Position numbers and translations under genes: made by a program. Positions 49,603-55,600 of a stretch of 64,000 nt of DNA are shown here, piece by piece. Below the pieces are notes generated by a model that was given only the letters and a program-made list of their open reading frames with translations, made no database searches and was not told the DNA's origin. The first letter of the stretch is position 1. The number at the start of each line of letters is the position of its first letter. Source of the DNA: Botryllus schlosseri (Eukaryota); NCBI GenBank assembly GCA_051294905.1, contig CM119372.1, positions 10,108,001 through 10,172,000 on the forward strand. The letters are read 5' to 3'.

Positions 49603-52600
49603 ATGGCAAAAGTTGCAGTAAGTATTAGAATTCGCACCAAGTTCGTTCCCTTTGATTAATTGATGTTATTCCTTGCAGTCTCCTCAAGATGATATTACCA
49701 AGAGCGCCACAATCACAGAATTGGATGATGATGAGGTGCCAGTTACAAGTAAGAATGAGACTATTTGGAATTTACCTCGAGTGTCTCCCTATCACTACTG
49801 AATTCTTTACACGATATAGCAACTGAAATCCGTGGCTTTCCTTCTCGAAAACCCATCGTATCTTATGAAGGTGACTGACTTCTATTTACTTTATCTCTCT
49901 TCCATTTAATTCTTGTTTCGGTTCTTGCTGTTATTGCCTATTGGTAATCCTATAGCTGGTTACCCTCCCTATCAATGAAAATTGATTATCATGTATAGTG
50001 TATGATATATTTTTTATTTACTATACTGATCCATCCACCTTTCAAGTAAAAATGTGAAAATCAGCCCGGACTGAAAATGGTCAGACAGTTGATTGCAATT
50101 ACAAAGCTGATGCTGTAAAAATAAAGGTCGTCTGTTTACATATTGTTTGTGCCAGTATACTTGAAATGGTAATTTGTGGCCTGCTACCTAGCCTCCAAAT
50201 GGATTGCTAACTAAAACATTTACGACCATCTCTGAAAAGTGAACGAAATAGCAAGTCATAATATTTGTGTTTATCCCAGTATGGAATCGGTGTCCAGTGT
50301 CCATGGCACGCAGGATCACGCCGACTTGGTCGCCAGTTGCACGCCGTCATGGGTCGTTGATTTTATTTTTTTTTAAATTGAAAAAAAAATTCGAAAAAAG
50401 TCAATATTCTCAGCCACCCCAAATGCTATATTCCAGTTAGTATGTGGTATATAATGTTTTGACCTAGTTCTCAAGACGGGATCTGTTGATTATACTCTCT
50501 GTTGGTAAAGTACTTGCACCTTGCTAGTTGCTAACCATTAGCATCTGATCCCTTGTCACAGGCTTAACACAGTCATTTGAAATCAGTAACCTTGCTTGTC
50601 ACGCCGCAAAGTTGACTCTGTCACACGAAAAAAGCTCCTATCAGGCAGGATTTATTTCAAAAAAAAGCACGGAGATTCCATACCGGTGTTTATCCAATAT
50701 GGAACCGGTGTCACGTGCACACCAAAGATTCAACTCACTGCACACCAAAGATTCTACTCACTGCATACATTGTGTGACACTGGAAACTATCTTGGCCCAC
50801 CAATTATATTGTTCCAACTCTGGTATACCGTGCCCCTACTGGAATCTTGGTACGTTTTGCTTGATATAGCAGCCGAGCAGCGATGATTCTCCAAGTTGAA
50901 GTAATTTAATAAAACATAATTAGTAAATGAAATATAGTGTGAGCACAGGACACCGATTCCATACAGGTTGTACTACTCTTTCAAATTTTAAGCCTTGGTC
51001 GCCAGCTATAAGATACCCATTTCATCTCGAAGTCTGCTGATCATTACACTTGCATCAATTGGATAACCCAATCTGCTTTGTCAGTGAAGTTATATTGTTC
51101 AGAAAACAGCTTGTTTCAATGTCCTTCAGTACTGATTTTTGTCTGTTGATCAGCTTTTGACGATTTCAATTTTGAATTCTGTGTTGAAGTGCAAATTGTG
51201 ACTCCTGTATTCCCGTTTGATTCATTATTTGAATAACAGAAAATTAATGTCACGTCAATACCCAGCTTCACCTAATTTTTTATATAGTCATATTTTCCTT
51301 TGTATGCTATGCTTATAGTTCATTCATTCATTTTAAAGTCCTCATTTCAAGATCTATAGAACTCTATTTGAAGCACCTTAACACCTTGTAATTTTTTACA
51401 TATGTGTTGAGGATTTCCTGGCATTGGAAAATCACATGCTTTCCTTCCATAATAATTGCAATGCATACATTGTCATATGTGTTTCAGTCTTGTTGCTGTA
51501 CTGTCGAAGCCTGTAAAAATGTATTCATTTTTAGCATTGCACTCTTGCTTCCCTTCCTCCTCAACTCTAATTGAATCATACTCTTCTTGCCCTCTTTCTT
51601 CCCCGTGCTCTCAAAAAGTAACAGTAAGTGCTCATCCAGCATTCGATTCAACCTGCACAGCACCATCCGCCACTGCAACCCAAGGCTGTCACAGCGACAG
51701 GTCGCAGTTCAATATAGACTTCTGTTCTGCAACTGTATGTTCGTTAAGTGATAGCTGTAAAGCCAAACTATCCGGCGCAAGGCTCGATCAACAAGAGGAT
51801 TCTGCGTGGTGTGGTGATAATGAACACAGCAATGCTCGTTTGAACGGCCTGTGTGCAAGTGCCTCTAACCAGTCGTGTGCAAACAATTTCAGTCACTGCT
51901 TTCCTACTCTTCTGTTGAATTCCACTAACTACACTTTTGGCAGTGATCATGTTCACCGCGAAGTTGTTAGTCAGTCTGGAAGGCCGGGTACAGACAATGC
52001 AATTAAGCCAACATGTCACGATGAGACAGTTTGTGACCAAATATTGCCAAAATCCGAAGTTGAATCTAAAGCCTATTCTGATTCATCCTCAATTTGCACC
52101 GATTCCTTGGAAGAGTTGCAGCAAGTGACATACCTGGAAGACAATGCCATGGAAAATCCTCCAAAGAGCTACTTGCTTCCTTCAACTTTGAATACCGGCA
52201 ATCATAATAGTAGTTTTGTTGACTTCAACAGCTCAGAAACCAACACTATAGATTGGCAGAACTCTTCTCCGACCTCTCCTACTTTATCGTACAAAAATGG
52301 GCATGATACAGAGATCCAGAACATAACTTGTGTTACTTCCAACATGTTGCACAATGATGTGTCTTTGAAAAGTCCTGAGCAACATGACTCTAGGGAGGAA
52401 AATATATCAACTTCAAATTCATTTGGGGAAATTTCACAAAACTATATCACTTCTGGGTATATCGGTACAATTCCCCAGGTTGATGTCTCTGGTGCCTCAG
52501 TGTCCGATGTCAGATCAATGCAGAATTTGGTGAAAGAGCATTTTACAAATGTCAACAGTGTGTCTTACCGAGAGGAAGAGCCAAGTTCACGCGTGTGTGG

Positions 52601-55600
52601 CGAGCAGTGTGCACAGAATGGAAGTGAATCGTCGGAGTCTAGTGATATTGCTATGGAGTTGGATCAGTTGAACTCTTACTTTGATGATGAGTTGATTGGA
52701 GAACGGCATTTCTTTTCGTCGATGCCGAGCTACTCCAGGCAGCATCTTCTCGATAGGGCTGCCATGACGCCACCTAGTGCTGTAGCAGAGGTCCCGACGG
52801 TAGATGATGCGCAGTCCCTAGAGGACCTTTCGCTTCGGCGTGTCATTCCAGAAGCCACTATGCCGCCTGCGACAGCTGACGACAAGGTAGTTGGATTGGT
52901 GGAAAGCGAACTTGATGATCCTGGGACTGGAGCATTTGACAAGAAAACCTTAGAAAAGCAGCGAGTTGACGTTGAAGACACTACGGTATTAAGAAGTTCT
53001 GAAAATGCGACCGTTCCACGCGACAGTGGCCCAGAAAAATTACTATCTCCAGTTGCAGTCAGTGGTGAGACACCGGCGTTCATTCTCATGGCTCGTGCAC
53101 ATTCATGGACGTCTTTTCAATAGGTTTATAGCACTCATTAATCATGGTATGAAGTCAACAAGGTTTTGTGTATTTCTATTTTGTCAACACTCGTCATGTG
53201 TCGTCGGCCAATCTTCATACCTCACATCTTACCTTTGCCCTCTCATTTCTGTCATGTAACTTTCTGAGCTTCAGTTCCATTACCTCCAGGCTCGTGCCAT
53301 AACGGTAGCTCAATTACAAATGCTGTTCTGACAGATGATTTTACTTTTGCAGACAAAAAGACTGAAGGTGCTGAAGGTAAGCTTCTCAAACTCCTAAGAA
53401 TATTTAAAACAGTAAAGTAAGTATGCTTGTTACCTGCTGGAGACCTTGGTCTGACTTGCAGAATGTATGCATTGTGTTTTTAACTTGTGCCTTGTTTTGT
53501 CTGTCCATTTCACTTGACATAGGTGTTTTGTAACGCTGATGAGGAAGTTAACTGACACCTCTAGAAACGATGAGAACTAATCCAAAGCGTGAAACAACCA
53601 CTACGTCTTGATAAAATATTTTGAAACCAAATTTAAAGCTCTTAGCTCAGTTTGGCCCGGCCGTGGACTATTCTAGTCTTTTTGCAGAATCCGACAGTGA
53701 TGATGATTCCATGCCTGACCTAGTCGATAACGTCACGACTTCTACAGCCGGGTCGTCCTCAGAACCCAAAACCACATCGTCAACTGCAACAAAGGCGTCT
53801 TTTCCTCAAGATGTACGGTTTGAGAATTTGCATTATTTTGTAATTTCGAAGAAACTTCCTGTTCGAAGTTGACCCAGACCAATCTGAACACAACCCAAGG
53901 GTCGAAGAATATAGTGCTAATCGAATCCCTGCCCGTCCACAGACTAGCACTAGCGTGACAGCTAAATAAGGTTTGCCCGTTTATGGTTTTGCAGGTGATG
54001 AACTTGATCAGTCAAGGTGCGGGAGGCGGAGACGCCGATGAGCAACCCCGTGCTGGTGGAAAACAATCTCGTAACGAGAAAAAGGCGAGGAAGGTATCAA
54101 GTTACTTGTTTTTTTCTCTGTGTCCACAGCTCAAGAAATACCTTGCTATTTCAAGGCCATTTCAAAAATGGGACTGAAAACACTGACTGGTATCACACGA
54201 GTCACGATAAGGAAGTCGAAAAACATTTTATTTGTGATACACAATCCGGAAGTGATGAAGAATCCAGGCTCGGACACTTATGTTGTGTTCGGAGAAGCCA
54301 AGGTTAGTGTTACTTTGCTTTAAGATTATCCAAAAGGATAGGCTTGTGTGCGATGCGTCTTTCAATTGCGCCTCGTGTCCACGGTTCATTGCGTGAATAT
54401 CAAATTGGTAAACTGGAGCATTCGCACCGATTTTGTGTGACTGCACTTAGCACCCGTCGGACTTATCTGATATTCAAGCTGTTCTCGACAAATTTTTGAA
54501 GTACGGACTTTGGACTCACATTACTGGATGTTAACAGTTGTTAACAGTTGATTGGTATGATTTGGCGTATGGTAATTTGTGTATTATATTCTCTGACAAT
54601 TTGTTGATGATTCTATTCATTTTCATGGCCAATTATCGTTTGACCCCTTGAGCTACTTTACTTACCGGCCAGCTGTGAGAAAATAGTAGCCTACCAGATA
54701 TTTAACAATTTGGCCTAATGGAAACCTACCCAGTGCCCTGTGTTTGGATACGTCGTGGTACACAGTAGGGTGGAGTGAAAATGACTTATTTTTTCAAATC
54801 GTTAAAAGGGCTTCCTCAATCCTGACAAATGATCTAAAACTTCAATAAAAAGTGACTTCAGGGTATTGCCCCCATTTTCCAGCCGGCAACCCCCCAATTT
54901 CTGCGTGTGGGGGGGTAGAATGGCTCATCTCGGCAACCGCTGGTCGTAGAGTCATGATATATAGCTCAAAATCTGCGGAAGCATCATGTTTCTATCTGTC
55001 TTAAGAAGAAAGTTTTCTCTATTGTGAACTCAAAATGAGTTATAGCCAAAAAACAATATATATGCACATTTTTGTTGAAATTCAGCATTTATTCTGACGA
55101 ATTGTGATCTGTCATCAGTTTTTTTGAATCTAAAAGTAACACACTGACAATACCGAATATTGGGCCCATAATACAAATATATTCACAACACAGTCCTTTT
55201 AAAATCGGTTCAAAACATCATAAACACTCACATTTAACGACTTATTGAAAATGCATTTTTGTGTCAAATTTTTTCATCAGTTTACGTGACTTAATTTTTT
55301 GGCAATTGAGAGGCCATCTCGTCTTTGAAATCCTGAAACTTGTGCTGATGCTTCTGTTACCAGCTTTACATGTCGTTCAACTGTTTGATTGTGGCATGGA
55401 TGAAACAAAATCAGAGGCTTCTCGCGGCATTCTTCCAACTCTGCATCAGTTAAGTGCTCAATCGCTGGAGGAAGTTGTTGTTAAGGTTCAATATCAACCA
55501 ACTCGTGGTATGCCTTTGCTTCCAAGTTGAACTTTGGGACACAGAATAAACAAATAGGACCCCAGTTCAATTGGTTGGAACTGCTATGACTCTCAATGTC

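Follow-up and report, generated by a model that had tools for sequence, protein, structure and literature searches.

The second intron of the NACA gene in the sea squirt Botryllus schlosseri contains a long open reading frame, which we suggest is an alternative exon of this gene. The gene lies in a stretch of 64,000 nucleotides (assembly GCA_051294905.1, contig CM119372.1, positions 10,108,001 to 10,172,000 of the forward strand) that was analyzed as a whole and is called the window here; all positions are counted from its first letter. The open reading frame (ORF) runs from stop to stop over 51456-53123 (+), on the sense strand of NACA, and is 555 codons long. It contains putative splice sites in the phase of the intron, it is present once in the genome assembly, it has stayed open in a relative, and in the RNA that we examined it is skipped. 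The explanation that we favour, with a probability of about 0.45, is that the frame is a fast-evolving, disordered alternative exon of NACA, which is used in a tissue or a developmental stage outside those sampled. The finding is a genuine lead that can be checked, and its central claim, the inclusion of the exon in NACA mRNA, failed the first available test.

The open frame and its conservation in a relative

A frame of this length is not a product of chance. Based on the stop-triplet frequency of the window (0.051), a frame of 555 codons is expected about 2e-13 times per start and about 2e-8 times over the window in all six frames. It is the longest frame in the 64-kb window, where the runner-up has 364 codons, and when the region was shuffled 2000 times the longest open frame that appeared was 189 codons. 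The other five frames across the same stretch contain 18-43 stops each. The GC content of the frame is 0.456 vs 0.379 in the flanking intron.

The candidate exon occupies 51535-53064 (+), a segment of 1530 nt that encodes 510 residues (peptide P0001) and has phase 1 at both ends. It is preceded by the putative acceptor ttcatttttag (51524-51534, +), which has a short pyrimidine run and ends with TAG; in the canonical NACA coding exons all eight acceptors end with CAG or AAG. The putative donor gtgaga (AGTG/GTGAGA) follows at 53065-53070 (+), and no RNA joint was seen at either site in the runs described below. The intron is of phase 1, being preceded by 15 + 70 coding nt, and since 1530 is divisible by 3 the inclusion of the segment would preserve the NACA frame. 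It would enter after residue 28, and the frame would be retained into the following 24-nt exon and the exon of the acidic ESDSD stretch, by which the 245 aa alpha-NAC would become a protein of 755 aa. These features were first described in a reading of the DNA from its letters alone (the sequence-only reading), and its description stood in full when we went over it: the stop-free sense frame of 555 codons in intron 2 is there, the phase-1 acceptor and donor that bound an in-frame exon of 1530 nt can be read from the sequence, and the predicted size of ~755 aa follows from adding 510 codons to a coding sequence of 738 nt. An alternative acceptor at 51747-48 was judged by eye and rejected, its phase being wrong.

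P0001 is composed of 16.3% Ser, 14.4% Asp+Glu and 5.5% Pro, and has a net charge of -41, in agreement with the Ser-rich and acidic insert of the sequence-only reading; its disorder is a prediction. The PXLXP motif, which that reading had also failed to see, is found neither in P0001 nor in the peptide of the relative (P0002, see below). No tandem repeats were found in the segment and no Pfam family matches it at E <= 1. A profile search of the PDB with the segment gave no match at E <= 1, and the ESM Atlas gave no usable match. An AlphaFold2 model from a two-sequence alignment has a mean predicted local distance difference test score (pLDDT) of 30 and a predicted template modelling score (pTM) of 0.13, values that are compatible with disorder, but the alignment is too shallow to inform.

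The protein searches covered 5.8 billion proteins through a word index (near, shorter and longer lengths) and 1.84 billion representatives exhaustively with HMMER. The only relative that was found is P0002, an ORF of 472 aa on a contig of 3173 nt, with an E value of 5.5e-140 in the word-indexed search and 1.7e-140 with HMMER. In the 5.8-billion collection there were no relatives of 30-279 aa and none of 894-2550 aa, and neither collection holds an annotated protein that contains the segment. P0002 aligns with residues 68-510 of P0001, and 274 of the 428 ungapped columns are identical (64%). The alignment has nine internal gaps, all of them frame-preserving, and no stop. The loss of the frame in relatives, which the sequence-only reading had named as a sign against its proposal, was not seen in this one species, where at least 472 codons remain open, with an identity of 64%.

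Such openness is difficult to obtain by drift. In a control simulated on the window's own codons, neutral drift at 0.20 substitutions/site, which gives 65% amino acid identity, introduced a mean of 7.6 new stops, and the frame survived without a stop in 2 of 3000 trials; with 0.15 and 0.25 substitutions/site it stayed open in 6/3000 and 0/3000 trials, respectively. The identity between the two peptides is also patchy, with a variance in 20-column windows of 9.68 vs a shuffle mean of 4.39, and the observed value was reached by none of 5000 shuffles.

The two ends of the alignment are informative as well. P0002 reads through the donor position and is similar in frame up to ...SPVAVS and six codons further (GETP-x-F). 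As it continues past the donor, P0002 must stem from an ORF call on genomic or unspliced DNA or RNA and not on spliced mRNA. More than six codons past the donor, a frame shift is needed for P0002 to match the window (score 61 vs a shuffle mean of 22.5 and maximum of 39, n=300), which means that the intron is still alignable and that the frame is lost at the first length change beyond the putative exon, while it survives all nine inside. This comparison is suggestive of a frame constraint that ends near the donor, and it is based on one length-change event. At the other end no start codon is conserved: the first residue of P0002 aligns with Val68 of P0001, and the first in-frame Met of P0001 past the acceptor is residue 206. 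Taken together, these comparisons show that the open state of the frame, and perhaps a few blocks within it, are under selection, with none visible on most residues. Openness that is kept without residue constraint is the pattern of a disordered segment.

RNA evidence and variation within the frame

Four of the 24 listed runs were examined over 49000-54400 with a reporting threshold of 1%: X1, which consists of contigs and is RNA since its contigs are spliced, and X15, X18 and X19, which are raw reads. In a listing of the runs by the share of words that they have in common with the exon, no run recorded as RNA holds the exon; six contig runs marked 'RNA?' share 5-23% and six runs of unknown kind share 38-56%, and this listing was not used as evidence.

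The most informative raw run is X15, in which the NACA exons are covered about 178-188x and the frame has a coverage of 0 in every bin of 50991-53162. The joint from 49748, the end of exon 2, to the 24-nt exon is carried there by 63 + 38 allelic joint reads, together with 90 loose ends. In X19 the exon depth is below that of X15, the coverage is 0 on 51534-52981 and the same joint has 5 + 13 allelic joint reads. The exon depth of X18 is too low to inform; the frame is at 0 and there are no reads of the 49748 joint. In X1 the NACA exons reach 360-1370x, and the frame is covered 2.9-3.6x over 51566-52490 by four low-depth contigs that lie inside it, with 0 in the unique intron bins on either side. 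The contigs of X1 do not span the joint from 49748 to the 24-nt exon (0), and the other exon joints are spanned. No joint at 51535 or 53064 was seen in any of the four runs. The X1 contigs hint at low-level transcription of the frame, and splicing is not demonstrated by them.

Several of these results weigh against the use of the segment as a NACA exon. The joints 49748/51535 and 53064/53353, for which the sequence-only reading had proposed to look, are absent in 3/3 raw runs at the 1% threshold (the tissues of the runs are not stated): X15 and X19 have none, and X18 is too thin. By arithmetic from the counts, the depth limits inclusion in X15 to less than about 0.2% and the junctions to less than about 1.6%. 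The X1 contigs in the frame carry no junction, they leave the final 570 nt of the exon uncovered and, at about 0.3% of the exon depth, they do not exceed the unspliced signal at 54303-54400 (6.6x).

The variation points in the same direction. When the X1 contigs were compared with the window inside the frame, nine of the ten listed differences were non-synonymous, with a neutral expectation of about 72-74%; the listing gave just ten of the differences, the contigs have a depth of about 3, and some may be errors. All ten variants listed in the canonical NACA exons are synonymous, and the contrast of 9/10 with 0/10 non-synonymous changes is significant (Fisher P = 1.2e-4). Among the non-synonymous variants, two strike residues that are invariant between both species (T218 and C266). 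The identity of 64% between the species equals the neutral expectation for about 0.2 substitutions/site, and it is not clearly higher than that of the intron flank, in which 13 of 24 positions are identical. Constraint at the amino acid level is therefore not detectable on the segment by the comparisons of variants, drift and flank. Finally, the known distribution of the frame is limited to one relative.

The host gene and its surroundings

The host gene is identified as NACA by the Pfam domains NAC (PF01849, E 2.8e-20), on the exon at 54156-54302, and UBA_HYPK (PF19026, E 2e-11), on the exon at 57325-57450. Its canonical coding sequence is made of nine coding pieces, all on the + strand, with a total of 738 nt, 245 aa and a single terminal stop. 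Exon 1 (49549-49617) follows a spliced-leader acceptor AG at 49547-48 and holds the ATG at 49603; its joint to exon 2 (49617 to 49679) has 193 reads in X15. Exon 2 (49679-49748) is 70 nt long and ends in phase 1, and intron 2 (49749-53352) is excised as one piece in all the RNA examined, by the joint 49748 to 53353. Exon 3 (53353-53376) is a micro-exon of 24 nt that runs from phase 1 to phase 1, exon 4 (53688-53812) encodes the acidic ESDSD stretch, and exon 5 (53995-54093) leads to the NAC domain in exon 6 (54156-54302). Exons 2 to 5 are established by RNA joints together with the sequence, and exon 6 by its Pfam match and an RNA joint. Exon 7 (57129-57245) was assigned by eye, and the loose read end past 54302 reads ATCGAAGACTTG... 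there; exon 8 (57325-57450) carries the UBA domain, and the last coding piece with the stop codon (57511-57525) completes the coding sequence (738 nt, 245 aa). RNA joints back six of the eight junctions, including 49748 to 53353 across the intron that bears the frame, and the remaining two, beyond 54400, were assigned by eye.

The 495.5-Mb assembly has a single NAC-domain exon. NACA is thus the sole alpha-NAC gene, and a long isoform, if there is any, must derive from this locus. The canonical 245-aa alpha-NAC is strongly expressed and is encoded by all sampled mRNA. The locus is variable, with a heterozygosity of a few percent. A frequent allele of the 24-nt micro-exon has one base change (Glu to Asp) and accounts for 38 of the 101 joint reads in X15, and a pseudo-joint from 53752 to 53995 and several linked variants (53752-53812) show that exon 4 also exists in a second haplotype, which is strongly diverged.

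The reads at the 5' end of NACA bear a leader (22 nt + AG) that is not present in the 64-kb window. The assembly contains 614 copies of it with <=2 mismatches (300 forward and 314 reverse), and a reversed control gave 0. At one locus (L002, about 1501-1530) the leader is followed by AAG/GT, and at another (L003) the GT is missing. The NACA mRNA is most likely trans-spliced to this leader at the AG of 49547-48. Such a leader is not vertebrate-like and fits a sea-squirt host; the invertebrate host that the sequence-only reading had assumed is thus supported by the 614 genomic copies, and the host is not a vertebrate.

Just upstream of exon 1, at about 48970-49102, the RNA coverage is about 190x in X15 and 3300x in X1. 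It ends abruptly at 49102, and the reads continue into letters outside the examined stretch. Every read deviates from the window at 49077 and the majority at 49007, and a search of the whole window against Rfam gave 0 matches. The stretch resembles a copy of some repeated or non-coding sequence that is strongly expressed and has its source elsewhere. Within intron 2, stretches at 50267-50990 carry disproportionately much RNA for this intron, reaching 315x in X1, and are flanked by loose ends on both sides. Short inverted matches can be seen there by eye (tatggaa.cggtgtc...), as would be expected of miniature transposons whose family is expressed at other loci. Intron 6 holds a palindromic element of about 2.2 kb (54827-57040), with adjoining inverted-repeat pairs of 88, 314 and 430 nt that are 92-96% complementary and a centre of 561 nt; a frame of 152 codons inside it (55839-56297) has no Pfam match. 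The runner-up in length among the frames of the window, with 364 codons at 22791-23885 (+), has only a sub-threshold match to a winged-helix family (HTH_24, E 0.0098).

Explanations of the frame and the comparison with skNAC

One explanation of the frame is a separate transcript that is nested within the NACA intron, whether as an individual gene or as an exon of another, overlapping gene; it would have its own start and would never be joined to NACA. Such genes are known on the sense strand of host introns, and the likeness is a long frame that lies wholly in the intron, with low-level RNA contigs confined to it. In-frame ATGs at 51477 and 51519 are found upstream of the putative acceptor and within the open frame, the cassette junction appears in no run, none of the X1 contigs extends to a NACA exon, and the gene caller took P0002 as a stand-alone ORF. 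We still consider this explanation rather unlikely. The difference from nested genes is that no start codon is conserved here (P0002 starts at Val68 and the next Met is residue 206), while usable splice sites exist at both boundaries, exactly in the phase of NACA. The in-frame similarity ends within six codons past the donor and not at the stop 19 codons on, and a separate transcript is seen in none of the three raw RNA runs. A separate mRNA made by joining the spliced leader to 51535 was also considered and set aside, as its first in-frame ATG would be residue 206 yet the conservation begins from residue 68.

Another hypothesis is that the frame presently has no function, being a relic or a by-product, such as a former coding exon that drifts with its openness left over. 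Here drift should have added about 7-8 stops at such a divergence, and the frame remained open in only 2/3000 trials. All nine length changes between the species preserve the frame and the first one outside the exon does not, the conservation is significantly patchy (0/5000 shuffles reach its variance), and 555 open codons can neither arise nor persist by chance. We regard this hypothesis as unlikely on these grounds, and it has on its side the neutral-looking variation (9 non-synonymous to 1 synonymous vs 0 to 10 in the NACA exons), the identity that drift alone would give, with the intron flank about equally similar, the zero coverage in the informative RNA runs, and a segment that is without a domain, a fold or a homologue beyond one relative. 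A transposable-element coding region or a captured foreign gene that was inserted in the intron has the least to offer. The gene does hold mobile DNA, namely the palindromic element of intron 6, and the RNA-covered stretches at 50267-50990 are repeat-like; however, a six-frame search of the 495.5-Mb assembly matched only the frame itself, Pfam gave 0 families at E <= 1, no repeats or terminal structures surround the frame within 49700-57200, tandem repeats are absent, and the sole match in 1.84 billion representative proteins is the orthologue-like P0002. With a single copy, no Pfam match and no repeats, an origin from a transposon is very unlikely, and the match to a transposon that the sequence-only reading had foreseen as a refutation did not appear.

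An alternative exon of NACA is the simplest account of a frame that is open in two species, has no conserved start, is bounded by in-phase splice sites and lies near the N-terminal end of the gene. We infer its inclusion in NACA mRNA, its tissue and its function along the following lines. Selection would maintain the open state of the reading frame in two or more related species of the sea-squirt type, and the frame would encode 510 fast-evolving, acidic, Ser-rich and probably disordered residues with no known domain. In the spliced mRNA the segment would stand after exon 2 (70 nt) and before exon 3 (24 nt), with phase 1 on both sides; a less likely variant is that it serves as a first coding exon that starts with the in-frame ATG at 51519. 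Inclusion would be limited to a cell type or a stage that is missing from the examined RNA runs. The long product of ~755 aa would retain the NAC dimerisation and UBA domains and would carry a long acidic arm near its N-terminus. By analogy, this arm would direct part of the alpha-NAC towards different partners or compartments, and its partner is probably not the SMYD1 MYND domain through PXLXP.

The analogy is with skNAC, a NACA isoform specific to muscle (skeletal and cardiac) that is formed by the splicing in of one very large exon. The insert of mouse skNAC has about 1970 residues, and the vertebrate exon is reportedly proline-rich, as the title of the 1996 work of Yotov and St-Arnaud is said to state. 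The sea-squirt lineage is the sister group of the vertebrates. In one published account, mouse skNAC is described as 23 N-terminal and 192 C-terminal residues of alpha-NAC that flank the big exon, and PXLXP as the motif that mediates its binding to SMYD1's MYND domain and the methylation at K1975 (PMC10340688). Another places the origin of Smyd1 at the tunicate-vertebrate ancestor (PMC4521844).

The likeness begins with the host gene, which is the same and has the same NAC and UBA domains. In both cases there is one long exon-sized frame near the N-terminus, after residue 28 here and after residue 23 in the mouse (PMC10340688), and the sea-squirt frame lies just upstream of the acidic ESDSD stretch. 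Both segments are skipped in bulk mRNA and have no folded domain, and the sea-squirt lineage is reported to have Smyd1 already (PMC4521844). The intron of the frame thus corresponds roughly to the vertebrate skNAC site, and the segment may work like skNAC in outline. The differences concern the segment itself. It has 510 residues vs about 1970 in the mouse, it is rich in Ser, Asp and Glu with a net charge of -41 and has only 5.5% Pro whereas the vertebrate exon is said to be proline-rich, it is without tandem repeats and without PXLXP, and a 24-nt micro-exon stands between it and the ESDSD exon. The resemblance to vertebrate skNAC exons that the sequence-only reading had proposed to look for was not found, as the protein searches gave no similarity of the segment to any vertebrate protein; this is weak evidence, given how quickly such exons change and how low their complexity is. 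As for canonical alpha-NAC (NACA/Egd2), the subunit of the ribosome-exit chaperone, the 245-aa product of the locus is an ordinary member that does not contain the segment.

With no sequence similarity, PXLXP, proline-richness or repeats, orthology to skNAC can be argued from position only, and to call the segment a skNAC orthologue seems unwarranted at present. The proposal of a skNAC-like exon, with which the sequence-only reading began, thus holds in part: the frame is real, in phase, single-copy, open in a second species and at a similar position, while inclusion in RNA, sequence similarity, PXLXP, proline-richness and repeats were not found. The presence of Smyd1 in the tunicate-vertebrate ancestor makes an ancestral skNAC-like exon plausible. 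That the segment is the sea-squirt counterpart of the skNAC exon, with a narrow use in muscle, heart or larva, diverged beyond recognition and with a partner interface other than PXLXP and MYND, is nevertheless doubtful in our view.

To our knowledge the big skNAC exon is known from vertebrates only, and our full-text searches found no description, in the papers that they covered, of an exon of this type outside them. If the segment is never included in NACA mRNA, it would be an example of a frame-conserved orphan coding region within the intron of a housekeeping gene. Such regions escape annotation pipelines and protein databases, and this segment is missing from both of the collections that we searched. 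If it is spliced into NACA, the insert sequence, and even the SMYD1-binding motif, would be dispensable for whatever keeps the insert. The switch from a chaperone subunit to a tissue-specific factor would then be dated before the vertebrates, and the sea-squirt gene would offer a small and genetically tractable model for the function of the insert.

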